Shown in pieces: positions 33,144-63,192 of a stretch of DNA of 64,000 bases. The notes beneath the pieces are model-generated. The model did no database searches. It was not told the origin of the DNA and worked only from the letters and a program-made list of their open reading frames with translations. The translations under genes and the position numbers were made by a program. The stretch is from a virus, in IMG/VR virus record IMGVR_UViG_3300017967_005407, positions 1 through 64,000 of that record. One strand, written 5' to 3'. Each line of letters opens with the position of its first letter. The first letter of the stretch is position 1.

Positions 33144-33163
33144 GTATATAAAAGGACTCTAAA

Positions 33164-34066: not shown

Positions 34067-34996
34067 TTTGCCTTTGTAATCTTTTATCTTTTTAGTTGTT
34101 AAATCTGTTAAACAACTGCAAAATTCATATTGGCATTTAACTGGAACATAAGGTATGTTAAAATTCATGTCGTGTATATTTCCTAAAATAAAATTAGGAA
34201 AACATTGACTACCTATAGTAACATTGCCTTGTCTTGTTATGTTTAATGTGTCTATACCAATCCAACAAGCCCAACCTTTAAATTTATTTTTCTTTTCCAG
34301 TAAAAGTTTTTGTAAGTCTATAATATTATTGTTTTCGTCTACCATTGTAACGCCATAGTTGTCTTTTTTGATACCTGGCAATTTTATTAATGATTGCATC
34401 TGTTTTATTTGTTTAGATGTATAAGGCATAGATTCTGCTTTGTCTAAACTTACACGTAAAGGTTTGTAATCTAATCTTATGTGTTTGTTCAAGTTTTTTA
34501 AACAGTAATCATATTGTTGTAGTGCTAAATCAAAATTTTCAATATCCATACATATTTGAAAATGTATATCAAAACTTCCAGCACATGCATTAAATTTGTC
34601 TACTAAATCTACAATATTAACCTGAGCAACATGAACACTTACAACTACACTATCTATATTGTTTTGATTTTTTTGCCACCAACGTTTTGTTTTATTACCG
34701 TTTGTTAGCAACTGTACTTTGTTTTTTGGACTGATGCTTTTTACATAGGAAAAAAACTCAGGAATTTCTCGCCATATAGTTGGCTCACCACCAAATAAAT
34801 TATACACAGCAAATTTATCTGTATAAGTTGCTGCTATTTTATCAACTAAAAGTTTTGCATTTTCTAATGTAGGAAAATTGTATTTTCCGTCGTGTGCTGC
34901 TGGTTCACAATAATGGCATGCGTAATTACATCTACTACTCATATCCCAATCAATGTAAACAAAATCTCTAGATTGTGCGTAATCAAATTGATCCAT
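34037..34996 (-). CDS. Radical SAM protein with C-terminal Cys-rich (twitch/SPASM-like) domain
   Basis: CNYACHYC, GGEPT and TNG motifs; C-terminal GWAC...C...CQYEFCSC. Start moved to ATG 34996, 4 nt after a minus-strand TAAATA. Confidence 0.88.
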   Translation of the reverse strand: MDQFDYAQSRDFVYIDWDMSSRCNYACHYCEPAAHDGKYNFPTLENAKLLVDKIAATYTDKFAVYNLFGGEPTIWREIPEFFSYVKSISPKNKVQLLTNGNKTKRWWQKNQNNIDSVVVSVHVAQVNIVDLVDKFNACAGSFDIHFQICMDIENFDLALQQYDYCLKNLNKHIRLDYKPLRVSLDKAESMPYTSKQIKQMQSLIKLPGIKKDNYGVTMVDENNNIIDLQKLLLEKKNKFKGWACWIGIDTLNITRQGNVTIGSQCFPNFILGNIHDMNFNIPYVPVKCQYEFCSCLTDLTTKKIKDYKGKLLENSDILI

Positions 34997-35000
34997 GCAG

Positions 35001-35041
35001 TATTTAACCGGTTGACAAAAACTAGGTAAATAAAGTATACT
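35001..35041. promoter_or_regulatory. Divergent promoter region
   Basis: TAAATA on minus (35001-35006), TAAATA on plus (35027-35032), and TTGACA-N18-TATACT on plus (35012-35041). Confidence 0.6.
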
Positions 35042-35061
35042 ATTAAGAAACTGGAGTGTAC

Positions 35062-36117
35062 ATGAGCGGTCAAGGTACAGCAATATTAGCTACTGACTTT
35101 AACAATATAAAAAGTATTTTAGAAAATAATTTTGGTATAGGTAATTATGGATTTAGCACCGGAACTGGTGCTAATGATATTCCTAATGATGTTGTAGGCG
35201 GTAGTGACCCAGCTACAAGTGATACTGTTTTGTCTGCTGATGTTGAAAGACTGTATAGCGTAGGACAACTAATACACTATCATCAAAATGGTGCAGTTAA
35301 AAGTTTATCAAGTGCCACGGGTTATGCAGATTTGCAAGTTGGAGAATTAATAGAATTTGCAGATTGGGGAGATGCTGCTAGTGTACAAGGGTTATATGAT
35401 CTTGCAAATTCTTGTGCTGCATTTAATAGGTATACTACAGAATTCAGCGGCGACTTTAGTGTTGCAAATAATAGATCGCTTCGTTTTTTGTCTGACTGGC
35501 AATCATTAAACATAATCTACATACATACATGGAACAGTGCAAACGAAATGACACACTTTTTCATGACCGGTGGAGAAGTTCGTATGAGTGTAGATATGAT
35601 TAATATAGGCACAGCGGGCGATGCTAGTTACGATAAAAACCTTAATTGGCAAACTATGATGAGTAATATGGGTACAGTCAGGTTATTCTTGCGTCCTAAT
35701 AGTGCCGGAACTGGCTACGAATGGGTTACTGAAAGTTTAAGCGGCGGTGGCACAGGAAGCATAATAGCTGATACTAACAATGCTGGACCTGCTAACAGTG
35801 GCAATGCGTATCTAGCTTATCAAAGAAACGGAGCCGGCTCAATTTATAATGACAATGAAATACGTATTACTGCAACCATATCTGCATCATCAGTGCGTTT
35901 AGAGCTTGATCTAATTGATGGAGATACAGGTACAGGTAATCCAGCAGATGGTCCATCTAGCACACCTATTGATGAACCTGTAACTGGAGATGTAAGAGCA
36001 AATAGTCAAATATCTTATGCAGATAGTACTATTACCTTAAATGATGGTACTGCTGATACAGACTTTACATTACTTGGACCTCAACCTACAACAACTACAG
36101 GTCTTTGGGCAACCTAA
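35062..36117 (+). CDS. Putative virion structural protein (paralogue of 33164..34066)
   Basis: GGAG SD before ATG 35062; S/T/G/D-rich; motifs shared with the 33164 ORF. Confidence 0.6.
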   Translation: MSGQGTAILATDFNNIKSILENNFGIGNYGFSTGTGANDIPNDVVGGSDPATSDTVLSADVERLYSVGQLIHYHQNGAVKSLSSATGYADLQVGELIEFADWGDAASVQGLYDLANSCAAFNRYTTEFSGDFSVANNRSLRFLSDWQSLNIIYIHTWNSANEMTHFFMTGGEVRMSVDMINIGTAGDASYDKNLNWQTMMSNMGTVRLFLRPNSAGTGYEWVTESLSGGGTGSIIADTNNAGPANSGNAYLAYQRNGAGSIYNDNEIRITATISASSVRLELDLIDGDTGTGNPADGPSSTPIDEPVTGDVRANSQISYADSTITLNDGTADTDFTLLGPQPTTTTGLWAT

Positions 36118-36129
36118 ATCATATATCCG

Positions 36130-36158
36130 TTGACAATCACTTAAAAATAATATATACT
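36130..36158 (+). promoter_or_regulatory. Sigma70-like promoter
   Basis: TTGACA-N17-TATACT. Confidence 0.75.
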
Positions 36159-36180
36159 GTAACCACAATTGGAGGTTTCT

Positions 36181-36528
36181 ATGGACGAGCGTCTTGAAAA
36201 AGCATTAGACATCAGTAACTACATGGTTACATTAAACAATCAAACACGTATTTTAAAAGAAAAGTATTACGAAAATCTTGTGTATTATTTCAATGGTGCT
36301 ACTTTTACTGTTACAAGAGAGTTAATTAACTTTATCAAAGGTTTAATAGATAGTGATCAGCAATCTGTAATTATAAGCGATGATAATGATATTCCTATTG
36401 AGATTGAAAACTTAGAAGAATTTCATCAAAATATTTTGAATACATATTTTACAGCATCAAATGAATACTTTGTTGAATACAACAAAATGAAAAGTAATAG
36501 AAACGTTGAAGGTATTTTAGATATATGA
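36181..36528 (+). CDS. Hypothetical protein
   Basis: GGAGG SD before ATG 36181; overlaps the next gene's start. Confidence 0.7.
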   Translation: MDERLEKALDISNYMVTLNNQTRILKEKYYENLVYYFNGATFTVTRELINFIKGLIDSDQQSVIISDDNDIPIEIENLEEFHQNILNTYFTASNEYFVEYNKMKSNRNVEGILDI

Positions 36529-37349
36529 GCAAAGGTGTTTTACTGTTTGCCAAAAGAAACAATGCATTAGATTATATTAAACAAGCTATATTTTGTGCTA
36601 AACGTGTAAAAAAATATTTAGACGTTCCAGTATCAATTGCTACTGATATGGTAGATGATGATAGACTTGATTTTTTTGATCATGTAATTAAATTACAGCC
36701 AAGCAATAATGATAACTCTAGAAAATTTAGAGATGGAAATCTTGCAACTAAGTTGGCAAACTTTAATAATGCAGATAGATATTTTGCATACGAATTAAGT
36801 CCTTATGACGAAACTATCGTAATGGATACAGATTACATACTTGCTAATGATAAACTTAAAAATTGTTTTGGTTCTAAACAAGATTTGATGATGTATAGCA
36901 GTGCTGTAGATTTATGTCATTGGCGTAATTTGACTGAATTTGATAGAGTAACTGATACAAGTATAAAGTTTTATTGGGCTACAGTTGTATATTTTAAAAA
37001 AACAGAAAAAACTAAATGCTTTTTTGATCTTGTGCAACACGTAAAAGAAAATTATACTCATTACAAAAGTTTGTATCAAATAATTAATCCGCTGTATAGA
37101 AATGATTTTGCCTTTAGTATTGCTGCTCATATACTAAATGGATTTACAGAAGATTTAACAATTGCAAGTTTACCAGGTAAAAAATACTTTACTACTGATA
37201 GAGATATATTGCAGAGTATTGACAATGATAAAATGATAATGTTGTTAGAAAAACAAAATCATGTTGGAGAATATACTGCAATAAAAACCAATAAACAAAG
37301 CATACATGTAATGAATAAAATTAGTTTAGAAAGAGTGATTGATGGATAA
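36525..37349 (+). CDS. Putative GT-A fold glycosyltransferase (GT8/nucleotide-diphospho-sugar transferase-like)
   Basis: SPYDETIVMDTD (DxD), FYWATVVYF, RNDFAFSIA and HVMNK motifs. Confidence 0.65.
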   Translation: MSKGVLLFAKRNNALDYIKQAIFCAKRVKKYLDVPVSIATDMVDDDRLDFFDHVIKLQPSNNDNSRKFRDGNLATKLANFNNADRYFAYELSPYDETIVMDTDYILANDKLKNCFGSKQDLMMYSSAVDLCHWRNLTEFDRVTDTSIKFYWATVVYFKKTEKTKCFFDLVQHVKENYTHYKSLYQIINPLYRNDFAFSIAAHILNGFTEDLTIASLPGKKYFTTDRDILQSIDNDKMIMLLEKQNHVGEYTAIKTNKQSIHVMNKISLERVIDG

Positions 37350-38181
37350 AAACTTTACTCTCCTAGCTCAAAATAGTGACCAAGATTACGTTAAGCAAGC
37401 GTGTTTATGTGCAATGAGTATACATGCTACAAATCCTGAAAGCAATGTTTCTTTAATTACTAATGACACTGTGCCTGAGAAGTATAAACAACTTTTTGAT
37501 CACATAGTAGAAATACCGTGGGGCGATCACGCAGCAGAAGAAGATTGGAAAATAAGTAATCGTTGGAAAATATATCATGCAACACCGTATGATAATACTA
37601 TGGTGCTTGACACTGATATGTTAATATTACAAAATTTAGATAGATGGTTTACTTATTTAGATAATTATGATCTATATTACACTAGCAATGTGTTAACATA
37701 TAGAGGAGAAACGGTAACAAGTGATTACTATAGAAAAGCATTTACACAATTTGACTTGCCTAATTTATATAGTGGAGTGCATTGGTTTAAAGAACGTCCT
37801 CTAGCAAAAGAATTTTATGCTTGGTTAGAAATGATTACTAATAATTGGCAATTGTTTTACAAACATCATGCAGGAGGCAAAACGTTTCAAAAAAAATGTA
37901 GTATGGATTTAAGTGCAGCTATCGCAGCAAAGATAATGAACTGCGAAAATCAAATCACAAGTAATACTAGTTTTCCAACTTTTGTTCATATGAAACCAAA
38001 GTTACAAAAATGGAATGCTTATGATAGTTTATCATGGCAATCACGTATTAGTGTTTACTTGAACGATGATTTAGATTTGTATGTTGGTAATTTTAAACAA
38101 AGTGGTATATTTCATTATACAGAAAAAGATTTTGCAAAAGACGAAATAATAAACACATACGAAAAGCACTTGGGGATATAA
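37342..38181 (+). CDS. Putative GT-A fold glycosyltransferase (paralogue of 36525)
   Basis: TPYDNTMVLDTD (DxD), NLYSGVHWF and FVHMK motifs. Confidence 0.65.
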   Translation: MDKNFTLLAQNSDQDYVKQACLCAMSIHATNPESNVSLITNDTVPEKYKQLFDHIVEIPWGDHAAEEDWKISNRWKIYHATPYDNTMVLDTDMLILQNLDRWFTYLDNYDLYYTSNVLTYRGETVTSDYYRKAFTQFDLPNLYSGVHWFKERPLAKEFYAWLEMITNNWQLFYKHHAGGKTFQKKCSMDLSAAIAAKIMNCENQITSNTSFPTFVHMKPKLQKWNAYDSLSWQSRISVYLNDDLDLYVGNFKQSGIFHYTEKDFAKDEIINTYEKHLGI

Positions 38182-38742
38182 ATGCCAATAGTAGTAAAAA
38201 GTAATACAAAAAAATATATTGAATTTGACGACGAAGGTAATATACAGGCTATAGTGAATACACCAAGCAGTGATCAATACATTCAAGTAGATAGCAAGGA
38301 TATAATAGATTTAATTAAAGGTATTGTACCTACACATCAATATCGAGTAGAGTTTGATATTGTAAAAAAAGATTATGTGTTGAATAAAACTGATTATTGG
38401 GAAGAAGCAAGAAGCTCTGATAGTTTTTTACATAAAATAGAATACAATGAAGATGCTGATGCTACATTAATCCAAAATAACATAAAAAAACAATGGGAAT
38501 TAAAATTAGGTAAAAAAGTTTTACAAAATATGGATAAAATAAATGTCAATATGAAAAACTTGATTACCGGATTTAGTATTACTGATAAAAATAATCCTTA
38601 TAATTTACATTATATTTTAAACTTTGAAACTGATAAATTTACAATTCCTTTTCCTGATAATTTTCAGTTTGACAAATCTCTAGTAAGTGTTTATACTGTA
38701 AGGAGATTAGAGTCTTATTCTCACGAGGTAATCAATGACTGA
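38182..38742 (+). CDS. Hypothetical protein
   Basis: Tightly packed ORF in the operon; no motif recognised. Confidence 0.65.
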   Translation: MPIVVKSNTKKYIEFDDEGNIQAIVNTPSSDQYIQVDSKDIIDLIKGIVPTHQYRVEFDIVKKDYVLNKTDYWEEARSSDSFLHKIEYNEDADATLIQNNIKKQWELKLGKKVLQNMDKINVNMKNLITGFSITDKNNPYNLHYILNFETDKFTIPFPDNFQFDKSLVSVYTVRRLESYSHEVIND

Positions 38743-39652
38743 TATTTTTAGAGTAGTTGATCATGACATAATTTATCTTAGTTATGATGAGCCCAATGCC
38801 GAACAAAACTATGCAGATTTGCTTACAAAAGTTCCTTGGGCTAAACGTGTACACGGTGTAAAAGGAAGTGATGCTGCACACAAAGCTGCTGCAAATGCAA
38901 GTGATACAGAAAGATTTATTACTATCGATGGTGATAATCGAATACGTGAAACTTTTTTAAGCCAAGAAGCAGATTTAAGTGAATATGACTTAACTGATAA
39001 AGTCATAAGTTGGACTGCTTATAATCAAATAAACGGACTTGCATATGGCAACGGCGGTATTAAGTGTTGGCCTAAACATAAAGTTTTAAGTATGAAAACG
39101 CATGAAAACGCAGATCCAGACAATGCACATGCACAAGTAGATTTTTGTTGGGACTTGCAATATATTCAAATGAATGGAACATTCAGTGACATTTACAATA
39201 ATGCAACACCTCAACAAGCATGGAGAGCAGGATTCCGTGAAGGTGTTAAAATGGCACTAGATCAAGGTATAAAACCAGATATTGAAGATTTTAAACGCAA
39301 TCATTGGAAAAATTTGCATAGACTTTGGATATGGTTAATGGTAGGTGCAGATGCTGATAACGGACGTTGGGCAATTTATGGAGCAAGAGAAGGTTTGTAC
39401 AAAACTATGTGTACAGATTGGAACTTTATCAACGTGCGTGATTTTGAATGGTTAAACGATTATTGGAATAATATCGAGGTTAATGAAGAAACATTAGAAG
39501 ATGAAACTCAAAGACTCGGTGATGAACTTATGAATGAATTACAGGCTCCAATTGCATTACAGCCGTTAGATGCAAATCAAAGTAAGTTTTTTAAAACAGT
39601 GTATCAAAATCCTGTACGTAATCCTAAGTTTATCGATAAGGAACTTGGATGA
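38735..39652 (+). CDS. Putative GT-A (GT2-like) glycosyltransferase
   Basis: SYDEPNA..NY, RVHGVKG..AAH, IDGD (DxD), YGNGGIK and AWRAGFREGVK; paralogue of 43039. Confidence 0.6.
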   Translation: MTDIFRVVDHDIIYLSYDEPNAEQNYADLLTKVPWAKRVHGVKGSDAAHKAAANASDTERFITIDGDNRIRETFLSQEADLSEYDLTDKVISWTAYNQINGLAYGNGGIKCWPKHKVLSMKTHENADPDNAHAQVDFCWDLQYIQMNGTFSDIYNNATPQQAWRAGFREGVKMALDQGIKPDIEDFKRNHWKNLHRLWIWLMVGADADNGRWAIYGAREGLYKTMCTDWNFINVRDFEWLNDYWNNIEVNEETLEDETQRLGDELMNELQAPIALQPLDANQSKFFKTVYQNPVRNPKFIDKELG

Positions 39653-41022
39653 GCGAAAGAGACGAAGCAGTTCGTATAACAAAATACACAGACGAACAGA
39701 TTTCTCCTACATTTTGTTTTGCTAAATGGTATCATGCAAACATTTATTTTCAGACAGGTGAAACACACAGTTGTTATCATCCTGCTCCTCATACAATTGA
39801 TACACAAGCTATTTTAAAAAATCCTAGTGCTATTCATAATACAAAACAAAAAATTGAAGAACGTGCTGCAATGTTGCGTGGTGAACAACCTAAAGGCTGT
39901 CAATACTGTTGGAACATTGAGAATATGGGTCCTGATTATATCAGCGATCGTAAAACCCGTAGCAGTAGTATTTACAACGAGGAAAGATTAAATGCTGTAA
40001 AACAAGGTGGCGCAGAATTTAATGTTAATCCGGAATATTTAGAAGTTAGCTTTGGTAATGAATGTAACTTCCGTTGTGGTTATTGTCATCCAAAAGCCAG
40101 CAGCAGATACTATCAAGAAATTAAGCAACACGGTCCATATGATATGGTGCGCAATCACCGATGTGATGTTGATTGGTTTAAAATTTATGAAGAAGACAAT
40201 AATCCGTACCTAGATGCATTTTGGAAATGGTGGCCTGATTTAAGCAACGACTTAACTATTTTACGCATCACAGGTGGAGAACCAACAATACAAAAGAGCA
40301 CATATAAACTTTTTGATTTGTTGGAGCAGGATCCAAAGCCTCATTTAGAATTGAATGTTAACAGTAATTTAGGAGGCAAACCAAAGCAATTAGAAAAATT
40401 TACCGATGCAGTAAATAGTTTGCTTAGTCAAAATAAAATTCGTAGATTCAAACTGTTTACAAGTATTGACACTTGGGGTAAACGTGCTGAGTACATACGT
40501 AACGGATTAGATATTGATGTATTTGAGCGTAATTTAGATTATTTTATGCGTAATACAAATGCACCTGTAACTATAATGATTACATTTAATATTTTCAGTG
40601 TTACAACTTTTCAAACATTACTTGAAAAAATATTAGAATGGCGCCGAAAGTATAATGATGTTGAAACATTTCGGTGGAATCGTTTAAGTTTTGATACACC
40701 TTATCTAAAAGAACCATTACAATACGATATTAATATTTTGCCTCAGGAATATATGAAGTATATGCACAGTCATTTACAGTTTATAAAAGACAACTTAGAT
40801 GATGAACGTAAAGATGCATTTACTACAATGGAATATGAACGTTTTAGGCGTGTAGTTGATTACATGGATTCAACACAGTATGATCCTGCAAAAGTTATGC
40901 AAGGTCGTATTGACTTTTGGCGTTTTTTCAATGAGCAAGATAAAAGAAGAAATACAAATTTTAAAGAAGCATTTCCTGAAATGGCTGACTTTTTTGAAAC
41001 TTGTAAAGATACTGCTAGTTAA
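39649..41022 (+). CDS. Radical SAM protein with N-terminal twitch-like Cys domain
   Basis: FC.AKW...SCYH...GCQYCW, then CNFRCGYC, GGEPT and C-terminal QDKRR...FPE. Confidence 0.9.
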   Translation: MSERDEAVRITKYTDEQISPTFCFAKWYHANIYFQTGETHSCYHPAPHTIDTQAILKNPSAIHNTKQKIEERAAMLRGEQPKGCQYCWNIENMGPDYISDRKTRSSSIYNEERLNAVKQGGAEFNVNPEYLEVSFGNECNFRCGYCHPKASSRYYQEIKQHGPYDMVRNHRCDVDWFKIYEEDNNPYLDAFWKWWPDLSNDLTILRITGGEPTIQKSTYKLFDLLEQDPKPHLELNVNSNLGGKPKQLEKFTDAVNSLLSQNKIRRFKLFTSIDTWGKRAEYIRNGLDIDVFERNLDYFMRNTNAPVTIMITFNIFSVTTFQTLLEKILEWRRKYNDVETFRWNRLSFDTPYLKEPLQYDINILPQEYMKYMHSHLQFIKDNLDDERKDAFTTMEYERFRRVVDYMDSTQYDPAKVMQGRIDFWRFFNEQDKRRNTNFKEAFPEMADFFETCKDTAS

Positions 41023-41621
41023 AACAAAGGCAAAATTTCTTCAGCTTCTGGCCAACGTTCGTCTTCCATTTCTTTGTAGTAATTATCTACCTTAAACTTC
41101 CAAAAACTTTGTATAGTTCCTCTATATTCTAGTTCAATCGGTTCTTCTAAAAATCCTTGCTTACGCCATTCTGGAGCCCAACGTGTGTGTACAGCTCGTT
41201 GTTTTGCAATTGGGCTAGGGTGAGTGCTTATGTACAAAGGATTATCTCTGCCGCAATGCTCAATACATGCAGGAATTAAAAATTGCGCACTTGGGTGATC
41301 ATGTGGCCGCGGCGCACCTCTTAAGTTTCTTAAAGTGTTATGATTGCGTACACCTTGTACTAGATGTCCTAGCATACAAATTCTAGCACCTATGCGATAA
41401 GCGTTTCGTCCTAATATTTCTAAGCCTGTTAACTTATGGCTTACAACACAGCCTACAATATTTTCATAGTTGTATAATAAGAATAAAGTTGAATCTTTTT
41501 CTTTTTCAAGAGATGATAAAAGCATATCGGCGTTACTATTGTTGTAGTAACGCTTTTTTTCTGCTTCAATAAAAAAGTTTGTTAAATTTTGTGAACCATC
41601 ATAGGTTTCAATTTTCCACAT
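41019..41621 (-). CDS. Hypothetical protein, possibly a GNAT-like acyltransferase
   Basis: 200 aa with its own promoter; the pattern FLLYNYENIVGCVV...YRIGAR only weakly suggests GNAT. Confidence 0.45.
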   Translation of the reverse strand: MWKIETYDGSQNLTNFFIEAEKKRYYNNSNADMLLSSLEKEKDSTLFLLYNYENIVGCVVSHKLTGLEILGRNAYRIGARICMLGHLVQGVRNHNTLRNLRGAPRPHDHPSAQFLIPACIEHCGRDNPLYISTHPSPIAKQRAVHTRWAPEWRKQGFLEEPIELEYRGTIQSFWKFKVDNYYKEMEDERWPEAEEILPLF

Positions 41622-41627
41622 ACTTGC

Positions 41628-41656
41628 ATTATAGTATAAAAATTATCCTAAGTCAA
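41628..41656 (-). promoter_or_regulatory. Sigma70-like promoter with leaderless geometry
   Basis: TTGACT-N17-TATAAT-N6-ATG. Confidence 0.75.
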
Positions 41657-42968: not shown

Positions 42969-42986
42969 GTTTCTTCTCCTACTTTT

Positions 42987-43032
42987 TATTTATCAGTAAA
43001 TAGTTGACAAAACAATTTTACTATGCTAAGTT
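42987..43032. promoter_or_regulatory. Back-to-back late promoters plus a sigma70-like promoter
   Basis: TATTTA-TCAG-TAAATA (42987-43002), then TTGACA-N17-TAAGTT with a TG extension. Confidence 0.6.
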
Positions 43033-43038
43033 ATTATT

Positions 43039-49981: not shown

Positions 49982-49998
49982 GTGCGCAGTTAATGGAA

Positions 49999-50004
49999 TA
50001 AATA
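49999..50004 (+). promoter_or_regulatory. Late promoter core TAAATA ahead of a radical SAM operon
   Basis: TAAATA-CAGT-ATG(50009) in a 27-bp intergenic gap. Confidence 0.65.
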
Positions 50005-50008
50005 CAGT

Positions 50009-52715: not shown

Positions 52716-53269
52716 TCATTACAGGAAATTTAGAAGAAAATTTAGCAAACGCATTGCATAAAATATACCCATATGCTCAATATTGCAGTCGTACAACAGG
52801 ATTTGATTTAAGTTTACGTGAAGATCAAGTACGTGTAGCACAACTAGTTTTAGAACATGATGTTTTTATAAATTGTGCAGCATTATTTAAATTCCATCAA
52901 ACAAATTTGTTAGATGAAGTATATCGTGTGTGTACTGAAAATAATCATCGTCCTCATATTATTAATATAGGCAGTACAACCGATCGTGTAAAAAACGGAA
53001 AAGCATGGAGATACAATGCCGAAAAGAAGGCGTTGCGTGATTACAGTAACACACTTGGTATAAGCGGAGTATGGGGTAAAACGCCAAAAATTACATACAT
53101 AAGTTTTGGTACGCTAAGTAATAATAGTAAAAAACATCCAGAAAGAGTTTGCTTAGATATTAACCGAGCAGCAGAATATATTAAATGGATTGTAGATCAA
53201 CCTAAAGACATAGGTATAAATGAAATAAGTATTGATCCTATGCAAGACAAATATTGGAACGAAGAATGA
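52712..53269 (+). CDS. Short-chain dehydrogenase/reductase-like protein (compact)
   Basis: IITG, DVFINCA, IINIGS and catalytic YxxxK (YNAEK); the Gly-rich loop is degenerate. Confidence 0.7.
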   Translation: MIITGNLEENLANALHKIYPYAQYCSRTTGFDLSLREDQVRVAQLVLEHDVFINCAALFKFHQTNLLDEVYRVCTENNHRPHIINIGSTTDRVKNGKAWRYNAEKKALRDYSNTLGISGVWGKTPKITYISFGTLSNNSKKHPERVCLDINRAAEYIKWIVDQPKDIGINEISIDPMQDKYWNEE

Positions 53270-54090
53270 GTATAGCTAAACTAGATACAGATCCAGATAC
53301 AAAAATAGATTTTGAAGTTGCAGAAGAATATCACGAAGCATGGAAAGCTACATGGACTGATAGTTTTCAAGTACATGATGTAATGGATGAAGATGAACTT
53401 GAATGGCTCAAAGAACACATGCTCAAACGCTATGACAAGATGCGTGTAAAAGAAACAGGTACACTACATTTTTTCAGTGATAACGCTGCTATTGAAGACA
53501 AGTTTTTTGATAAGTGGAAAAAATATATACCAGAACTAGAACAAACAGGCATGTGGGAAGGTAATTTTGTTATGACTGCAAGTCCATACAACTTGCATAT
53601 TGATACAGGTCGTCCAGAATATCTTATGGATCGCGGGCTAGTACCAGGTAGACAAATTATTATTCCGTTGTGGGTTGGACATACAAATAAAACATACAAA
53701 GGTACAGATAAAATACCCCCTGCAGGTACCTGTTTGTTTGACAATAGATTTATCAAGTTTGGAACTAACTTTGCAAAAAGTGATAACAAATATGACACAG
53801 ATGTTTTTTATACAGTGCGTAACTATGACAATTTGACTTGTTATAACAAAGATGGAAGCATTAAAGAAGTAGATTGGGATAAACCGTTTGACCCAGAAGT
53901 GCGAGAAAAATATTTAAGCCATTTTCCAGCACGTTGGTTAGATGGCTTTGACTTTGAAGCAATGTATAACTGGGACAGAGGCAGTATAATTGCATTTGAT
54001 AGATGTCAAGCACACAGTGGTATGGATTTTCCAAAATACAAAGTTACAATGAAAGCTGGATTAAGTTTAATGACTACAAGGAAACTTTAA
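53266..54090 (+). CDS. Putative 2OG-Fe(II) oxygenase-like protein
   Basis: HxD (LHIDTG), IIIPL and a distal His (FDRCQAHSG) followed by Lys. Confidence 0.5.
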   Translation: MSIAKLDTDPDTKIDFEVAEEYHEAWKATWTDSFQVHDVMDEDELEWLKEHMLKRYDKMRVKETGTLHFFSDNAAIEDKFFDKWKKYIPELEQTGMWEGNFVMTASPYNLHIDTGRPEYLMDRGLVPGRQIIIPLWVGHTNKTYKGTDKIPPAGTCLFDNRFIKFGTNFAKSDNKYDTDVFYTVRNYDNLTCYNKDGSIKEVDWDKPFDPEVREKYLSHFPARWLDGFDFEAMYNWDRGSIIAFDRCQAHSGMDFPKYKVTMKAGLSLMTTRKL

Positions 54091-55130
54091 TGGTTCCTAA
54101 TTTAAAACGTGTACATATAGAAGCAAGCGGACGTTGTAATAGCAAATGTCCTATGTGCAGTAGATTTACTACAGATGGATATTTACAACCTGGTTTAAAC
54201 ACAATGGATTTAGAGGATGAAATGTTCTTTAAATTTTTTACTGAAGAAAGAACAAACAATTTAGATCATGTTTACTTTAGTGGTGTATATGGAGATCCTT
54301 GTCTTAACAAAAGTCTTGTAGATTATGTAAAATGGTTTAAAAAACATGATGTAGATGTCGCTATTGATACAAATGCAGGGTATCGAAGCACAAAATGGTG
54401 GGCTGAATTAGGTGCTATGAACACAAGAGTGCATTTTGCAATAGATGGACTTGAAGATACAAATCATCTGTATCGACGTGGCGTTGTGTGGGATAAAGTT
54501 TGGAAAAATGTAAATGCATTCCAAGAAGCAGGCGGTAATGGTGCTTGGACATTTATAGTTTTTAAACATAATGAACATCAAGTAGAAGAAGCTAAAGAAC
54601 TTGCTGCAAAACTTGGTATGGATTTTAGATTAAAAGTTACTCAAAAATTTAGAGGACACAAAAACTGGGCAGTAATGGAAGATGGTGAACGTCTATATGA
54701 TTTAGAACCTCCTGAAACACCAGAATATAGACATCCAAATGTTGGCGAACAGCACCATTATCCTGGTCCTGCGACTTTTGAGTTTAAGTTAGATAAGCCG
54801 TCGCCTTTTGATAATGTAGAAATACAATGTCAAATACAAGATTGGAAAGAATTATTTTTAGCACATACTGGTCATGTGATGCCTTGTTGTTTTTTAGGAA
54901 CATTACATCACGACAGTCCTGGCGCTTATCAGTTTAACAAAGAGTTTGATATGAACAGTGTAGACTTGCATAAAGTTACACCAGAAGAAGCAATAGAAAA
55001 CTTATATGATATCGAAAGACGTTTCAAATTAAAAAGTATTGCAGAAGGTAAATTGCTTACTTGTGCTAGAACATGCGGAAAGCAATTTCAAAACAAAACG
55101 GTTTATGTAAATGACAGTAGTAAAAAATAG
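54090..55130 (+). CDS. Radical SAM protein with C-terminal twitch-like domain
   Basis: CNSKCPMC, GVYGDP, FAIDGL and PCCF...CARTC; start at the TAATG overlap. Confidence 0.9.
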   Translation: MVPNLKRVHIEASGRCNSKCPMCSRFTTDGYLQPGLNTMDLEDEMFFKFFTEERTNNLDHVYFSGVYGDPCLNKSLVDYVKWFKKHDVDVAIDTNAGYRSTKWWAELGAMNTRVHFAIDGLEDTNHLYRRGVVWDKVWKNVNAFQEAGGNGAWTFIVFKHNEHQVEEAKELAAKLGMDFRLKVTQKFRGHKNWAVMEDGERLYDLEPPETPEYRHPNVGEQHHYPGPATFEFKLDKPSPFDNVEIQCQIQDWKELFLAHTGHVMPCCFLGTLHHDSPGAYQFNKEFDMNSVDLHKVTPEEAIENLYDIERRFKLKSIAEGKLLTCARTCGKQFQNKTVYVNDSSKK

Positions 55131-56472
55131 TTTTTGTATATATCCTTGGATACACATGCAACTCAAACCAAACGGACAAGCAAAACCTTGTTGTAGATTT
55201 GACCATATGAACGCAGCATATAGAGACGAAAAAGGCAATCCTACAATGTCTCAGTATAATGTAAAAGAAAAATCATTTAAAGAAATTATGGAAAGTGATT
55301 TTTGGAACGAATTACGCACAGATATGCTCAAAGGAAACACTATACCAGGATGCTACAAGTGCGACAGAGAAGATGCTGGCGATAAATTTAGTATGCGATT
55401 TAATGCTAATAATGCATGGAATGAACAAAACGAATTTCGTCCAATAGATGTTAATCAAGAACTAAGTTTTAAATACTTAGAATTAACAACTGGTAGATAC
55501 TGCAATCTAGCTTGTAGAATGTGTAGTAGTGATTTAAGTACAACTTGGGATGCTGATGATAAAGTTTTAGCAGAAAAATATGAAGATAGATTTGATTTTA
55601 GTAAGCGTCCGCAAATATTAAACTTAAATTTTACTGCTGATGATTTCAAAGAAACGCAATTAATTAAAATGACAGGTGGCGAACCTATGATTGTTCCTAC
55701 CTTTATACCATTTATAGATAAAGTAATAGAAAGCGGATACACAGATAATATAATGCTGCAAATTTATACAAATTGTAGTTGGGTGCCAAAAGCAAAAATT
55801 ATTGATAGGTTAAAAAAGTTTGGATTAGTACAAATATATTTGAGCGTGGACGGATTAGATGAAGTTAATGATTACATAAGATATCCTAGTAAATGGTCAA
55901 CAGTTGAAGAAAGTGCAAAAAAGTGGTTAAGTATTGCTAAAGATCACAGTAATTTTGATATAGTGTTTTCTCCAACTATTAGTTTGTACAATATACTTCA
56001 ACTTCCGAAAATGTGGAATTGGTGGGAAAATTTACAAGAAGAAATATACGGAGAAAAGTTTATCGTTGACAATAACTTGTATTCAAAATATACTAGAAAA
56101 AATAAACACGGAACTGACGTAAGTTACATATACGAAATTGCAAGATTTAGTCCTACTATGTTACAAACTCCGTCCTATTTAAGTAGCACTATGTTACCGC
56201 AAAAAGAAAAAGTGATTGAACAATTAGATGAAATAATTAAAAAACATTCTAAACGTGTAGAAAATTTAGATGAATATGAAATATTTGTACGGTTTAGATA
56301 TATGATAAAACATATTATTAGTAGCTTCAATAAAAATACAAATACTAGTTTACAAGATTTTGTTGAGTATAGTGCAGATTTAGATAAACTTAGAAATCAA
56401 AAGTTGCAAGATTCATTGCCAGAGTTATGGGAACAAATTAAAACAAGTGTTGAATATAAAGGAAAACTATGA
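55111..56472 (+). CDS. Radical SAM protein with N-terminal twitch-like domain
   Basis: FCIYPW...PCC...CYKC; CNLACRMC; TGGEP. Confidence 0.92.
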   Translation: MTVVKNSFCIYPWIHMQLKPNGQAKPCCRFDHMNAAYRDEKGNPTMSQYNVKEKSFKEIMESDFWNELRTDMLKGNTIPGCYKCDREDAGDKFSMRFNANNAWNEQNEFRPIDVNQELSFKYLELTTGRYCNLACRMCSSDLSTTWDADDKVLAEKYEDRFDFSKRPQILNLNFTADDFKETQLIKMTGGEPMIVPTFIPFIDKVIESGYTDNIMLQIYTNCSWVPKAKIIDRLKKFGLVQIYLSVDGLDEVNDYIRYPSKWSTVEESAKKWLSIAKDHSNFDIVFSPTISLYNILQLPKMWNWWENLQEEIYGEKFIVDNNLYSKYTRKNKHGTDVSYIYEIARFSPTMLQTPSYLSSTMLPQKEKVIEQLDEIIKKHSKRVENLDEYEIFVRFRYMIKHIISSFNKNTNTSLQDFVEYSADLDKLRNQKLQDSLPELWEQIKTSVEYKGKL

Positions 56473-57716
56473 GTAAAACATTTTGTCCTATGCCATTTAC
56501 TCATTTGAATATTAAACAAGAAGGCAAAGTTAGTGCCTGTTGGCGTTTTCCTGATAAATTAGGCGATTATAGAACTCAAACATTACAAGAAATTTGGAAC
56601 GATGACGCATTGCAAAAACTAAGACACGACAGTTTAAATGATGTGCAAAATATTGGATGTAGAAGCTGTTGGGATATGGAGAAAAGTGAAAGTATTAGCA
56701 CACGTATGCAGTGCAGTCAAACTTTTCCTTATGTCAACCAACCGTTTGTAGAAGAACATATTCAAGAAGATTATAGCTTTCCAACAAAATATATACGCAG
56801 TGTTGAAATACGTTTCGATAATATTTGCAATTTAATGTGTAGGCATTGTAGTCCTGATTATAGTAGTGTTTGGGAACAAGCAGTCAAGCGTGATCCTACA
56901 CTAATGGACAAGATGCAAGAATATGGAACTTATAGAAAAGATGTTAACCATGTAAGTCTTACACAAGAAATGGTAGACGAAATAGCAAATGAGCTGGCAC
57001 CTAACTTAGAAGAAATAATGATTGCCGGCGGCGAACCATTGTATCATGACAAGCACTACAAATTTCTTGAAGACATGCAACCATATGCAAGTAACATACG
57101 CTTGAGTTACAACACTAACCTAAACATATTAGAATACAAAGGTAAAAGTGTGTTAGACTTGTGGAAAAATTTCAAAGAAATTTGGTTGCGTATTAGTATA
57201 GATGGCGATCCTAGTTGTTATGAATATGTACGTGCAGCAGGTAATCTACACAAAGTTGAAGAAAACATAAAAAAACTAAACGAAACACTAATTAATACAG
57301 ATATAAGTGCTACTTGTACTGTGAGTTTGTACAACATAACAAGATTTACTAACATTGTAAAATATTTTTGCGGATTAGATGTTTATTTTCACACAAGTTT
57401 GGTGCAATATCCAGAAGCTCTAAACATAAAATTGCTTCCACAAGAATTAAAAGATTCTATTACACAAGAATTTTGGCATTGGTATGAAAATGAAGCTGAA
57501 GATTATGTTAAAAGTGTTAGTAAAAAAGTAAAAGTACAAAAACAACTAGACAGAATTAAAAAATTTGCTACAAATACACTCAATTACATGAACAGCGAAG
57601 ATAGACATGACAAATGGCATTTGTTTTTAGATTACAGTGCCGCTTTAGATAGCTATCACGGCACTGATTTGTTCGAGAGTTACTCCGAATATTCTTCAAA
57701 ATTAAATAAATCGTAA
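56469..57716 (+). CDS. Radical SAM protein with N-terminal twitch-like domain
   Basis: FCPMPF...ACW...CRSC; CNLMCRHC; AGGEP. Confidence 0.92.
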   Translation: MSKTFCPMPFTHLNIKQEGKVSACWRFPDKLGDYRTQTLQEIWNDDALQKLRHDSLNDVQNIGCRSCWDMEKSESISTRMQCSQTFPYVNQPFVEEHIQEDYSFPTKYIRSVEIRFDNICNLMCRHCSPDYSSVWEQAVKRDPTLMDKMQEYGTYRKDVNHVSLTQEMVDEIANELAPNLEEIMIAGGEPLYHDKHYKFLEDMQPYASNIRLSYNTNLNILEYKGKSVLDLWKNFKEIWLRISIDGDPSCYEYVRAAGNLHKVEENIKKLNETLINTDISATCTVSLYNITRFTNIVKYFCGLDVYFHTSLVQYPEALNIKLLPQELKDSITQEFWHWYENEAEDYVKSVSKKVKVQKQLDRIKKFATNTLNYMNSEDRHDKWHLFLDYSAALDSYHGTDLFESYSEYSSKLNKS

Positions 57717-58969
57717 TCTTTTTGCAAATCATCTAATATATCATTATATTTTTTGAACTTTTGTAAATCGCTTGCTGGAACTTTGATATCACAATATAAG
57801 TTTGAGTTTATTTTTGCAACACGTTTAATATGACTTGCTGTAAGTGTGTTTATTTGTTGTAATCCAAACTGTAATGCATTGCTTCTAAACCCTGGAATGT
57901 CACCAATTGCATGATATATACCAGTAATATTGAATTTTTCTAATTCGTTAATAATTGCAGCATCATCAAACAACATATTTGCAAGTGCATATGAATGATT
58001 TTTTGTTTTGTATATTTGCCATGCATCGTATATAGCATCTTTGCTACCAAATTCTTGTAACAGCACATTCCATTGTTTCTCTATAATGTTATCTGAGCTA
58101 TTATTCCAAAAATCAAAATCTCCATCACCTGCGTCATTGCACAAAGAAAGAGTTTTAACTAATCCTTTTTTTGTACCATCCCAATTTTTTGTAATTAGCT
58201 TTTTCCAAAGTAGATTTCGATCAAAAATATCAAAGTGTAAATAGTTTTCTACATTGTCTATATACTTACTACCTAGTATAAATGCTTTAAACATGCTACA
58301 AGGGCCTACAACAGTGTTTATAGCGCCCTGTACGGTACTCAAATGTGTTTTATCAGTGCATATAGCTTCTGTATTATAAAGAAAAAACACCCCTTTATCC
58401 TGATCATTTGCGTGCCTTGGATTACGTGTTGTAAGAAGTTTAATAAACAAATCAGTAAGGTTTGTATTAATAATAGGAAGTTTAGTAAAATGATTTAACT
58501 CGTCATTCCATGCCTGTGGATTTTGTGTTGCTTTAGAATCTAATAACTGTTTAATTATTACGTTATTGATTTTTTTACTATCTGATTTTATGTAATCAGC
58601 AATCTTGGGTTTTCCTTTTTGTCGCCAATGTTTTAAATTTATTATCTGTATAGTTGGAGATTTTTTGTCGTGTATTACACTCCACTCTGTTTTATGACTT
58701 TCTATATCATATATACACATTTTATGAATATGCCAAAAATCGTGATGATACATTCCAAACCAAGTCACAATTAGATATTCAGTTTTTTTGTCAGCAATTA
58801 TATCTAATATGTCATCTACTGATTCTGCCCATACAAATGGATGCTGCTCAACACTTTGTTTTACATAATGTCCACGTTGATAATACAACATCCAGCTTTG
58901 ATAAAGGTCTCGATCAATATTGTTTTTTATATTTTTAGGTACAACAACGGCATGTTGTATATTAAGCAT
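57680..58969 (-). CDS. Hypothetical enzyme (paralogue of 48617..49981)
   Basis: Start set at ATG 58969, overlapping the end of the upstream gene; FFLYNTE and NWDG blocks. Confidence 0.6.
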   Translation of the reverse strand: MLNIQHAVVVPKNIKNNIDRDLYQSWMLYYQRGHYVKQSVEQHPFVWAESVDDILDIIADKKTEYLIVTWFGMYHHDFWHIHKMCIYDIESHKTEWSVIHDKKSPTIQIINLKHWRQKGKPKIADYIKSDSKKINNVIIKQLLDSKATQNPQAWNDELNHFTKLPIINTNLTDLFIKLLTTRNPRHANDQDKGVFFLYNTEAICTDKTHLSTVQGAINTVVGPCSMFKAFILGSKYIDNVENYLHFDIFDRNLLWKKLITKNWDGTKKGLVKTLSLCNDAGDGDFDFWNNSSDNIIEKQWNVLLQEFGSKDAIYDAWQIYKTKNHSYALANMLFDDAAIINELEKFNITGIYHAIGDIPGFRSNALQFGLQQINTLTASHIKRVAKINSNLYCDIKVPASDLQKFKKYNDILDDLQKDYDLFNFEEYSE

Positions 58970-59696
58970 AAATTTTTCTCCAGTGATGGTAACTTTCTTC
59001 AATACGTTTGTTCCAACCGTCACCTAACCTGCCGTGTGCAATAATATGATATCTATCCTCATTGCTCCAATTATATACACAATGTATATTATAGAGATTT
59101 AACTTGATAATACGTCCTTGTTCCCAAGGCAAATAGCCTATTTCGTCCATGTAGAAATGGCATTCTTCTGGATTGTTTAATGCTATATTAGTAGGACCGA
59201 TATGATTTTCGTCTAGTGTAATACTATCTCTATGTGGAATAATCCAGCCTCCTGGAGATAATTTCATAATACGTATTCTGTCATACTGTTTGTAATCAAA
59301 TCTGTTTTCAAAAAAATCTCTAATAGTAGGACACCAGTCTGCTACGTCGGTCCACCTGTATGGTGCGTCTTTTCTGTCATTGTATCCGTAAGTATGATGA
59401 GATTCTGTGTGTACACTACTCAAGCCATGGATGCACAAACTACTCCAACCGCTGTGACTTTCATGATGTCTATGAGGAACATAGTGTTTTTCTAATCTTT
59501 TAGCTTCCCAAAGCATTTTCTCCCAATCAGCATCTTCAAAACCTGTAATAGGTAAAAAGTCTAGTTGATCACTCATGTGTATTTCACGAGATGTTTTTAA
59601 GTTTTGTGGATATTTTGGTTTAGCTGGAAATTTATTACGTTCTGCAAATATCTCTGGCGGTTCGTTGCTTACTCCCCATTCTGTAATTGTATACAT
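58962..59696 (-). CDS. Aspartyl/asparaginyl beta-hydroxylase-family 2OG-Fe(II) oxygenase
   Basis: WSSLCIHG, RIRIMKLSPGGWIIPHRD (HxD) and HCVYN...RYHII. Confidence 0.8.
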   Translation of the reverse strand: MYTITEWGVSNEPPEIFAERNKFPAKPKYPQNLKTSREIHMSDQLDFLPITGFEDADWEKMLWEAKRLEKHYVPHRHHESHSGWSSLCIHGLSSVHTESHHTYGYNDRKDAPYRWTDVADWCPTIRDFFENRFDYKQYDRIRIMKLSPGGWIIPHRDSITLDENHIGPTNIALNNPEECHFYMDEIGYLPWEQGRIIKLNLYNIHCVYNWSNEDRYHIIAHGRLGDGWNKRIEESYHHWRKIYA

Positions 59697-59725
59697 GTCG
59701 AATCCTTTTCTTCATTATATACGTA

Positions 59726-59741
59726 TATTTAGTGCTAAATA
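59726..59741. promoter_or_regulatory. Back-to-back late promoters
   Basis: TATTTAG-TG-CTAAATA inverted repeat between two divergent genes, each with an SD. Confidence 0.65.
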
Positions 59742-59759
59742 CTGCGGAGAATAGAAAAT

Positions 59760-60743
59760 ATGAGCCTTGTTGCATATCATAAATTACACAAAAAAATAGA
59801 TGACTTATCCGAATGGGGAATGTTTTTTAGAAAAGTAAACTTTCCAAAAAGAACAACAGACAATTGTAGATGTAAAAGAGATTTGAAATATATTTTGTGG
59901 GGCATAGCTAGATGTATTTTGCATCAAGATCCAAAATTAATTAACGAGATTTCTCATAAATTTGTAAAAAATAAAAAACTTGTCCTAACTGATCATAGAG
60001 TAGAATTAGCTGTTTATGCTTATATAGAAGGTGAGTTATACAAACTACTTAAACACCATAGAGATGATGTTGAAATTATGATAGAAGCAATGCAGTTGCT
60101 AAAAGATAATTTTAAAAAACTAGAAGAAGCAAACTACACTAGAGAATTTAGTGATTTGATTAAAGAAAGAAAAACTACATTTACATGGTTAGATAAAAAA
60201 GTTACGCAAGAAACAGTTGAAGATATATTGTTAGACTTACACATGTACGCACCTAGTAAACAAAATAGAATGCCTTACTATCTTGATGTTTTAGATTGGA
60301 AGGACCCTGAGTTGAGACATAATATTTTTGAATGGTGCTGGAGAGACCTTAAACATGATGCACAAACAGATAAAGGAAATCCTCAAACATTAGCACCTTA
60401 TCTATTTTGTTTTACTCCACGGATATCTAATAATCCTGACGATAATGCTTTGGAAGAAGCAATGATTGAAATAGGTATAGCCAGTAGCTTTATTATTTGG
60501 AATGCACAAAGTAGAGGATTAAGTACAGGTTATTGTGCATGTATTCAAGATCCTACAATGATAAGTAATGCATTAGGACGTCCGAATAATCAGGTTAAAT
60601 TGTTATTAGGTATGGGCTACAAAGATGAGAACGCTAACAGTTATTTTGATCCAAGAATACAGGCCGATAAATTGCTACCAAGTGATAATTCATTCCATAA
60701 ATCTAATCAGGAAAATATAGGATCTTATATCGTATGGCATTAA
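59760..60743 (+). CDS. Nitroreductase-family flavoprotein with N-terminal extension
   Basis: LIKERKT, APSKQNRMPY, EIGIA......AQSRGLSTGY and LLLGMGY motifs. Confidence 0.75.
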   Translation: MSLVAYHKLHKKIDDLSEWGMFFRKVNFPKRTTDNCRCKRDLKYILWGIARCILHQDPKLINEISHKFVKNKKLVLTDHRVELAVYAYIEGELYKLLKHHRDDVEIMIEAMQLLKDNFKKLEEANYTREFSDLIKERKTTFTWLDKKVTQETVEDILLDLHMYAPSKQNRMPYYLDVLDWKDPELRHNIFEWCWRDLKHDAQTDKGNPQTLAPYLFCFTPRISNNPDDNALEEAMIEIGIASSFIIWNAQSRGLSTGYCACIQDPTMISNALGRPNNQVKLLLGMGYKDENANSYFDPRIQADKLLPSDNSFHKSNQENIGSYIVWH

Positions 60744-63162: not shown

Positions 63163-63192
63163 TTGACAAAATAATTAAAGATAGTATACTAT
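63163..63192 (+). promoter_or_regulatory. Sigma70-like promoter with leaderless geometry
   Basis: TTGACA-N16-TATACT-N6-ATG(63197); no SD. Confidence 0.65.

Follow-up and report, generated by a model that had tools for sequence, protein, structure and literature searches.

TAAATA hexamers as probable gp55-type late promoters in an uncultured jumbo myovirus lineage whose enzyme island appears split between early and late expression

Genes and TAAATA hexamers of the contig

The window analysed here covers positions 1–64,000 of one 76,597-bp contig, the IMG/VR virus record IMGVR_UViG_3300017967_005407, and the element in question is the hexamer TAAATA, which stands before virion genes and before several units of an enzyme island. 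The G+C content of the window is 29–37%. Its left part encodes SbcC/SbcD-like nucleases, a late sigma factor, tail-fibre-like proteins, and a baseplate module of gp53-, VgrG-, gp25- and gp6-like proteins. The dense enzyme island begins at about 34 kb and continues rightward. Matches to Radical_SAM (radical S-adenosylmethionine, rSAM) in the island were obtained for 13 of the 47 scanned window proteins, several of them with a SPASM domain in front, and the island additionally encodes Asp/Asn hydroxylase-like and nitroreductase-like proteins. Elsewhere, 12 radical SAM genes have been noted in a marine viral genome of the T4-like type (PMC5332604).

The contig is a fragment of a jumbo myovirus from an abundant uncultured lineage. 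The nearest cultured relatives of its gp6-like protein are the jumbo myoviruses Salicola SCTP-2, Agrobacterium Atu_ph07, Pseudomonas PA5oct and Klebsiella RaK2/K64-1, with identities of 32–37%, and all 95 matching records lie below 60% identity. Among uncultured viruses in IMG/VR, 382 of 386 candidate stretches were confirmed as relatives of rSAM gene 50009, and at least 599 among at least 600 candidates as relatives of gene 27159; their records reach 257 kb, with 72% estimated completeness, and the large relatives span 158–257 kb at a completeness of 45–72%.

The gene map of the contig contains 67 genes and leaves 1,328 nt (1.7%) of intergenic DNA, which is 71% A+T. A first-pass annotation of this DNA had placed TAAATA before structural genes at 2911, 9608, 10070, 27127, 31597 and 35027 on the forward strand, and the hexamer is present at all six positions. 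The last of these belongs to the island; the others, together with one variant, are:

2911-2916 (+): TAAATA of virion structural gene 2934-3743 (phrog_12050), 17 nt from its ATG
9608-9613 (+): TAAATA-N4-ATG of the gp25-like baseplate gene 9618-10046, a leaderless-type geometry
10070-10075 (+): ATAAATA of the gp6-like baseplate wedge gene 10100-13525, at a distance of 24 nt; TAAATA is present in 31 of 31 unique sequences of relatives
27127-27132 (+): ATAAATA, 26 nt from gene 27159-27764; the stop codon of a 4528-aa gene supplies its TAA, and TAAGTA follows at 27138
31597-31602 (+): ATAAATA, 26 nt before the fibre-like gene 31629-33143; TAAATA lies 19–34 nt upstream in 60 of 66 unique sequences of relatives
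33141-33146 (+): variant TAAGTA, 17 nt before gene 33164-34066

The 4528-residue protein that shares its stop codon with a box is encoded by open reading frame 13543-27129 (+) and matches phrog_10938, a virion structural protein (E 1.1e-291).

TAAATA is the most under-represented of 4082 scored hexamers in the contig, with 77 copies versus 158.9 under a maximal-order Markov expectation (z −8.95). In the window, both strands together contain 58 copies versus 154.8 ± 12.8 in 100 dinucleotide shuffles. The caveat attached to the motif in the first-pass annotation, that the hexamer is common in AT-rich DNA, does not hold for this contig, where TAAATA has the lowest count of the 64 A/T-only hexamers (median 170). 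A comparison of intergenic with coding DNA had been proposed as a check of the motif, and it reveals enrichment between genes and depletion inside them. Fifteen copies lie wholly in intergenic DNA and two more straddle a gene end, versus 4.6 ± 2.1 in composition-preserving shuffles of the gaps, none of which reached 15 in 2000 trials. In the 60-nt sense-strand windows upstream of the 28 genes that have at least 9 nt of gap before them, TAAATA is the top hexamer (17 occurrences, 22-fold); it stands upstream of 17 of these 28 genes versus none of the 38 gapless genes. The next specific signal in these windows is GTTGAC/TTGACA, the −35 element of sigma70-type promoters. Hexamers that differ from TAAATA in one letter have 0–7 upstream sites versus 16 for TAAATA itself, and two to four times more copies within genes.

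These counts bear on the explanation that the island copies are chance A/T-rich hexamers in A/T-rich spacers. The composition of the intergenic DNA, the 60 of 77 occurrences that lie inside genes, and the loss of the site at 42997 in distant relatives are what chance would produce; however, the gap shuffles, the rarity of TAAATA among A/T-only hexamers, the low upstream counts of its one-letter variants, and the retention of island boxes in relatives whose flanks vary make it an extremely improbable account. It is refuted for the TAAATA set as a whole and remains only for single sites such as 42997, 59731 and 59736.

In co-directional gaps, 10 of 11 TAAATA copies are oriented toward the downstream gene (binomial p 0.006). 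Within genes the hexamer occurs 27 times in the sense and 33 times in the antisense orientation, versus about 60–150 for similar hexamers, and depletion on both gene strands fits a signal at the level of DNA. An alignment of 17 sites contains at most 0.56 bit of information at each position from −40 to −3, and there is therefore no conserved −35 element. The flank has a purine at −2 in 15 of 17 sites and an adenine at −1 in 8 of 17, with no other informative letters. The hexamer is separated from the ATG by four nucleotides at three genes and by 17–42 nt at the other 14 sites, where an AGGAG-type site lies between. It is almost certain that TAAATA functions before genes as an oriented signal at the DNA level.

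A signal acting in RNA, such as an A/U-rich ribosome landing or processing site near start codons, is very unlikely. It would suit the fixed 4-nt distance that three genes have here and 28 of 35 gp25-like genes have in relatives, as well as the constant placement of the motif on the sense strand of the downstream gene. By contrast, it does not suit the 14 sites that are farther from the ATG and have a separate AGGAG-type site. Avoidance in antisense is as strong as in sense, which is needless for an RNA signal, and the exact hexamer is retained where any A/U-rich stretch would suffice.

A gp55-type sigma factor and the virion genes of relatives

The gene for the putative reader of the hexamer lies at the left end of the window:

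2036-2857 (-): gp55-type late sigma gene, 273 aa; phrog_12791, 'sigma factor for late transcription' (E 7.6e-79), and phrog_234 (E 5.6e-20)
about 2909-2881 (-): sigma70-type promoter TTGACA-17-TATAAT of the gp55-type gene, read from the sequence

Residues 171-236 of the encoded protein align with residues 48-115 of T4 gp55 (chain 7d7c_F, E 1.7e-4). Seven residues of T4 gp55 have been named as lining its base pocket (PMC7892883), and five of them are identical in this alignment (N13, R57, F86, Y97 and T99), with L54 replaced by Y and H95 by F; the match at N13 falls in an N-terminal stretch that is not significant alone. A T4 late promoter has no −35 element and consists of a TATA box of 8 bp, located roughly one helical turn before the start, and T4 late transcription is coupled to replicating DNA (PMC2988020). 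The 6-bp core TAAATA corresponds to the last six letters of the T4 box TATAAATA and is invariant in the 17 sites. The full 8-mer has two copies in the contig, neither of which is upstream of a gene.

TAAATA is thus, as judged from its position and the encoded sigma factor, very probably the core of a gp55-type late promoter. The hexamer, in its fuller form R-A-TAAATA and without a −35 element, would serve as the −10-like core of the phage late promoters. Its reader would probably be the host RNA polymerase carrying the phage gp55-type sigma factor, in the way that T4 reads TATAAATA. Virion genes retain the hexamer upstream, and elsewhere it is selected against on both strands. Late timing of the TAAATA units is expected because of the gp55 homology and the link with virion genes.

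Conservation was counted over unique upstream sequences of related contigs. In hundreds of these contigs, orthologous virion genes are preceded by TAAATA with little or no variation. It is present in all 66 unique upstream sequences of gene-27159 homologues, which represent 78 loci (80 were fetched, and two without upstream DNA were dropped). Upstream of gp25-like genes, 28 of 35 sequences contain TAAATA-N4-ATG, three TAAATA-N5, one TAAGTA-N5, and three no box. When all loci are pooled, a box occurs in 159 of 381 unique upstream 50-mers (18.7-fold), in a set that is biased toward the genes used for fetching.

The 256,558-bp relative G001 has the same properties. TAAATA is its top upstream hexamer (34 occurrences, 11-fold) and is among its four most avoided hexamers (z −10.3), and the G001 homologue of gene 2934-3743 has TAAATA 18 nt upstream. 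The hexamer stands before 13 of 25 gap-preceded virion genes, a set comprising tail sheath, tail tube, head-tail adaptor and baseplate genes, versus 10 of 72 others (Fisher p 2.9e-4, odds ratio 6.7). The 72 comparison genes are small unknowns, replication genes, enzymes, rSAM and lysis genes, and the sigma gene; unknowns of at least 120 aa were left out. The first-pass proposal that TAAATA is a gp55-type late promoter of structural genes gains from both the encoded gp55 homologue and this association.

The letter at the fourth position of the hexamer varies between relatives. At the orthologous place in 35 unique upstream sequences of homologues of gene 33164, a gene of the virion module, TAAATA occurs in 17, TAAGTA in 8, both in 2, and neither in 8. 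This A/G interchange identifies TAAGTA as a variant of the TAAATA element. TAAGTA was also considered as a general second promoter and rejected, as only 2 of its 59 copies in the contig are upstream of genes and its N0–N11 spacings in G001 never mark gene starts.

Motifs of this class have been predicted in other phages. The element ATAAATA was predicted at 35 sites before structural genes of the jumbo phages vB_PcaM_CBB and GAP32 (PMC5259590), and late promoters of the form NATAAATA were predicted in T4-like cyanophages (PMC2984593). The promoters of T4, which are positioned at −13 to −6 and used by gp55 together with gp33 and the gp45 clamp, resemble the candidate promoters described here in having an A/T box, which would also be the −10 element here, without a −35 element, before virion genes on either strand, and in the phage-encoded sigma factor, whose homologue here keeps the pocket residues Y97 and T99. 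The Rak2-like phages CBB and GAP32, which are among the nearest cultured relatives of the baseplate gene of the contig (32–37% identity), share ATAAATA before structural genes and encode a gp55-like factor (PMC5259590). Their motif differs in having been derived by MEME from upstream regions of structural genes only, and the passages that describe it do not mention genome-wide avoidance, an N4-ATG class, a TAAGTA variant, or use before rSAM operons. In the cyanophages S-PM2 and Syn9 and in phage RB49 the late box is likewise shorter than that of T4, and these phages, which are without MotA and AsiA, have early sigma70-type and late promoters on the same genes (PMC2984593). Gene 35062 and the HNH-like gene 71810 (-) are similar here. 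The arrangement differs in that the late box here lies within the spacer of the early promoter, and, by its nearest relatives, this phage is no cyanomyovirus.

An alternative is that TAAATA is a −10 variant used by the host sigma70-type holoenzyme, for example in −10-only promoters, which would be neutral with respect to timing. Two boxes do lie within sigma70-type spacers (35027; 71853 on the reverse strand), and the motifs that the PA5oct study names around mapped starts are TATAATA and TTGAC only (PMC7318152). By contrast, the clear sigma70-type promoters of the contig are near-consensus, TTGACA-16/18-TATAAT or TATACT, and the TAAATA sites are without a −35 element. The sigma70 −10 element requires an invariant T as its last letter, and TAAATA ends in A. 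Together with the encoded gp55 homologue, which keeps most of the T4 pocket residues, and the association of the box with virion genes, these properties make reading by host sigma70 alone unlikely, and a gp55-type late promoter is the preferred interpretation.

Units of the enzyme island

The signals before the units of the island are:

35001-35006 (-): TAAATA-N4-ATG of radical SAM gene 34037-34996 (Radical_SAM E 3.4e-10), a leaderless-type geometry
35012-35041 (+): sigma70-type TTGACA-18-TATACT for gene 35062-36117, with TAAATA at 35027-35032 within the spacer
36130-36158 (+): sigma70-type TTGACA-17-TATACT of operon 36181-41022, without TAAATA
41628-41656 (-): sigma70-type TTGACT-17-TATAAT, 6 nt from the ATG of gene 41019-41621
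42987-42992 (-): ATAAATA of fibre-like gene 41643-42968; 18 nt to the ATG, with an intervening AGGAG
42997-43002 (+): TAAATA directly 5′ of the −35 element of the 43039 operon, doubtful as a promoter
43004-43032 (+): sigma70-type TTGACA-17-TAAGTT, 6 nt from the ATG of operon 43039-49981; read from the sequence, with a −10 element below the scan threshold
49999-50004 (+): ATAAATA-N4-ATG of the seven-gene rSAM/SPASM operon 50009-57716
59726-59731 (-): CTAAATA of the hydroxylase operon 57680-59696; 29 nt to the ATG
59736-59741 (+): CTAAATA of the nitroreductase/rSAM operon 59760-63162; 18 nt to the ATG, with an intervening GGAG
63163-63190 (+): sigma70-type TTGACA-16-TATACT, 6 nt from the ATG of the rSAM operon from 63197
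66790, outside the window: ATAAATA before a nitroreductase-like gene

The island hexamers named in the first-pass annotation, at 35001-35006 (-), 42997-43002 (+), 49999-50004 (+), 59726-59731 (-) and 59736-59741 (+), are all present, as are the sigma70-type promoters that it had assigned to units 36181, 41621, 63197 and 43039. The box at 42987-42992 (-), before gene 42968 (-), is an addition. Total counts of sigma70-type matches are at chance level (103 vs 104.6 and 64 vs 70.6), and only 11-of-12 matches before genes were used.

Homologues of gene 34996 (-) keep both the hexamer and its 4-nt spacing at 7 of 7 loci (4 distinct sequences), with changes in the four spacer letters and in the 5′ flank. 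Upstream of gene 35062, 7 of 7 related loci retain the −35 and −10 elements together with the TAAATA between them, and the other letters of the spacer vary; segment 35012-35041 is a putative dual early/late promoter, as in RB49 and S-PM2. The product of gene 35062-36117 has no Pfam or PHROG match, and a protein atlas returned viral hypothetical clusters only.

All 12 full-length related loci (4 distinct sequences) retain the box before gene 42968 (-), and in 11 of them the upstream context differs; seven further loci that match only the C-terminal 30–70 residues were not used. The gene product is fibre-like, with Gly-Asp-Val-type repeats and a C-terminus that matches the tail-fibre family phrog_30742 (E 2.6e-5). 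It has a C-terminal motif in common with the fibre-like protein of gene 67482-68963 (-) (L001:4482-5963 in the coordinates of stretch L001), with 17 of 37 residues identical (E 3e-7). The latter gene adjoins the right edge of the island and is also behind ATAAATA.

Operon 43039 has a TAAATA and a sigma70-type promoter in its upstream gap. The −10 hexamer, the 6-nt distance and the ATG are kept in all eight promoter-bearing relatives, four of which have TATAAT. The sigma70-type promoter thus appears to be the real one, and the box at 42997 is doubtful. Before the rSAM/SPASM operon, 52 unique upstream sequences of gene-50009 homologues (80 loci) contain TAAGTA 4–8 nt from the ATG in 34, TAAATA-N4 in three and TAAATA-N12 in one. 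Two contigs, L087 and L025, each have TAAATA at the virion gene and TAAGTA at the rSAM operon. The boxes of the divergent units 59696 (-) and 59760 (+) are kept in two of two relatives, and searches of viral and metagenome collections for further relatives of the 59760 unit returned none beyond the same two contigs. As candidate late boxes, 35001-35006 (-), 35027-35032 (+), 42987-42992 (-) and 49999-50004 (+) are well supported by this conservation, and 59726-59731 (-) and 59736-59741 (+) are plausible.

Two gaps contain back-to-back boxes of the same geometry, TATTTA-N4-TAAATA, at 42987-43002 and 59726-59741, to which two polymerases could hardly bind together. These pairs could instead be operators of a dimeric regulator. 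The two pairs in the window share the 4-nt spacing, and relatives whose flanks differ also contain the pair, as TATTTAtcatTAAATA. Most TAAATA sites are, by contrast, single and oriented (10 of 11 in co-directional gaps), and the half that ends at 42992 is kept alone in 11 of 12 relatives, from which the partner half is absent, so that an operator function is highly improbable.

A G+C-rich box (TGCGCAG, GCGCAC or GCGTAT, often followed by WTAAT) lies near some TAAATA boxes, at 49983-49991 (+), 10050-10055, 2892-2896, L001:7222-7230 (-) and L001:10951-10959 (-). It is located 14 nt upstream of the boxes at 2911 and 10070, 9 nt upstream of that at 49999, and just downstream at two small genes at 70–74 kb. 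In relatives, 26 of 31 unique sequences upstream of the gp6-like gene have a loosely defined form of it, 11–17 nt 5′ of TAAATA. The G+C-rich box may serve a promoter subclass as an upstream element or be the site of a regulator.

TAAATA, as a candidate late promoter, heads units 34996 (-), 42968 (-) and 50009-57716 and, together with a sigma70-type promoter, also 35062; the divergent pair 59696 (-)/59760 (+) is probably headed by it as well. Operons 36181-41022, 41621 (-), 43039-49981 and that from 63197 onward would start from near-consensus sigma70-type promoters, presumably early. Among the 36 island genes from 34037 to 67464, 15 are behind TAAATA only, 11 behind sigma70-type promoters only, and 10 behind both, nine of which rely on the doubtful site at 42997. 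The enzyme island therefore appears, on its promoter map, to be a mosaic split between early and late expression. The first-pass statement that much of the island is late holds for about half of it, including several units with conserved boxes; the rest stands behind sigma70-type promoters, and at least one of the late units, 41643-42968 (-), is a fibre-like gene and not an enzyme. Terminator scans were at chance level (9 vs 8.1 and 2 vs 6.2) and returned no convincing terminator between island units, so that read-through may blur the early/late map. The strongest terminator-like hairpin in the island, 41529-41554 (+), has 11 pairs and a T run and lies about 500 nt past the end of operon 36181-41022, inside the convergent gene 41019-41621.

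The first-pass annotation had further argued that co-expression with morphogenesis genes favours action of the island enzymes on virions over action on replicating DNA. Late expression would fit an action on virion proteins, but late transcription in T4 is tied to replicating DNA (PMC2988020); late expression alone does not discriminate between the two and does not exclude an action on DNA before packaging. The fibre-like genes inside the island and at its edge are a new and independent pointer that hints at virion decoration.

In the proteins of rSAM genes 50009-51409, 55156-56472 and 56469-57716, the SPASM match is N-terminal to the Radical_SAM core, opposite to the usual order; in one example SPASM covers residues 9-94 and Radical_SAM residues 142-310. 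Several 6-bp palindromes are strongly avoided in the contig: GTGCAC (2 seen vs 21.4 expected), AAGCTT (4 vs 21.5), GCTAGC (0 vs 13.2) and CTGCAG (24 vs 49.0). The avoidance of GTGCAC and CTGCAG is repeated in G001, and the depletion looks like restriction-site avoidance. Contigs from four metatranscriptome libraries labelled as salt marsh are at least 99% identical to parts of the fibre genes, gene 35062 and gene 41643-42968, which indicates that the lineage or its RNA occurs in such samples. Parts of 31001-41000 are contained in 12 RNA-library runs, in which uncovered parts carry no meaning; contigs of four of the 12 matching runs, placed on 31001-51000, cover regions including 41659-42969, 35056-35421 and much of 31–34 kb. 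Two contigs from different studies have their ends at 42964 and 42969, beside the start codon at 42968, and no conclusion is drawn from this.

Several observations weigh against late promoters of the gp55 type or against their use in the island. The adenine at −12 that gp55 reads in T4 is an A in only 8 of 17 sites, and the core here has 6–7 bp, (A)TAAATA, versus 8 bp in T4, the first T-A of which is not kept. Some boxes here, unlike those of T4, abut the start codon. Homologues of gp33 and gp45 are not found among the Pfam and PHROG matches of the 76.6-kb contig and are likewise not reported in the description of CBB (PMC5259590), so that replication coupling in the style of T4 is uncertain for this phage. 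A search of four large relatives for a sliding clamp with PF02916 gave no match, and as the control genomes also gave none it is uninformative. A small number of non-virion genes, among them the HNH-like gene 71810 (-), also have TAAATA in front, and none of the five gap-preceded rSAM genes of G001, a more distant relative, has it within 60 nt. The site at 42997 is present in four close relatives and absent in four more distant ones that keep the sigma70-type promoter; 14 of the 52 upstream sequences of gene-50009 homologues are without a box; and the whole gap between 59696 and 59760 is nearly identical in the two relatives that keep its boxes. The RNA-library data are assembled contigs with a depth of 2–7, which cannot give starts, strand or level and may include DNA.

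Boxes abutting start codons and the promoter grammar of the lineage

All three TAAATA-N4-ATG sequences in the contig are gene starts (9618, 34996 (-) and 50009), versus none of the 12 with spacings N0–N3 or N5–N11. In G001, the genes of which were called without reference to the box, gene starts occur at 6 of 13 N4 and 2 of 6 N5 spacings and at none of 49 others, and seven control hexamers have 0–1 gene starts per spacing. The position of the T4 box can be deduced from the phrase 'A(-13) in place of T' (PMC2988020) and from the adenines at −12, −9 and −8 (PMC7892883), and we infer from these passages that it ends at −6. A box ending at −6 and followed by four nucleotides puts the A of the ATG at −1, within 1 nt of the expected start. 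Transcripts from the N4 boxes of 9618, 34996 (-) and 50009 would thus begin at or beside the A of the start codon, and the conserved 4-nt spacing suggests leaderless late mRNAs. Against this stands an AGG or GGA just 5′ of the box at 9608 and 49999, and often before the gp25-like and gene-50009 homologues. It could act as a distant Shine-Dalgarno sequence on read-through transcripts, and leaderless mRNA would then not be required.

Sigma70-type −10 elements are placed exactly 6 nt from the ATG, without a Shine-Dalgarno sequence, at 41622-41656 (-), 43004-43038 (+) and 63163-63196 (+), and the same spacing occurs at the primase gene of G001. A distance of 6 nt after a sigma70-type −10 element places +1 on the A of the ATG. 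The early mRNAs of 41621 (-), 43039 and 63197 are therefore likely to be leaderless, as judged from this spacing. Leaderless mRNAs that start at the A of the AUG include that of lambda cI transcribed from PRM. The boxes described here resemble PRM in that the spacing would put the start at the AUG (6 nt for sigma70-type, 4 nt for TAAATA), and differ in that two promoter classes would be involved and kept over hundreds of phage contigs. A literature search on leaderless late promoters found no description of leaderless gp55-type late mRNAs, which is not proof of absence; a paper on phage AR9 remarks that phage transcripts are often leaderless.

The overall explanation, in which TAAATA late promoters are read through a gp55-type sigma factor, the enzyme island is split in time, and the N4 boxes give leaderless transcripts, is considered likely. 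A wider proposal is more speculative. The lineage may place promoters against start codons as a rule, with 6 nt for sigma70-type promoters and 4 nt for TAAATA, so that the gp25 gene and whole rSAM operons would be leaderless in two temporal classes. The late box would be strong (TAAATA) or tuned down (TAAGTA), with the latter preferred before the rSAM/SPASM operon. The island would operate in two stages, early operons followed by late ones that are co-expressed with the fibre-like genes in and beside it, the products of which would be the likely substrates. This proposal is tentative and, taken as a whole, less likely than not to hold.

The motif class is already known, as ATAAATA, NATAAATA and TATAAATA late promoters have been published for related phages. 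New are the evidence for it in this lineage, from conservation together with upstream enrichment and overall avoidance, the mosaic of early and late units in the rSAM island, TAAGTA as a variant, and the conserved N4-ATG class, which makes leaderless late mRNAs in T4-type phages directly testable. The regulatory map covers a 30-kb radical SAM island and separates operons likely made together with virion fibres from earlier ones, which narrows the search for substrates and guides the choice of genes for co-expression. The promoter grammar of an uncultured phage can be read in this way with confidence, from sequence alone, through genome-wide avoidance, upstream enrichment and orthologous conservation.

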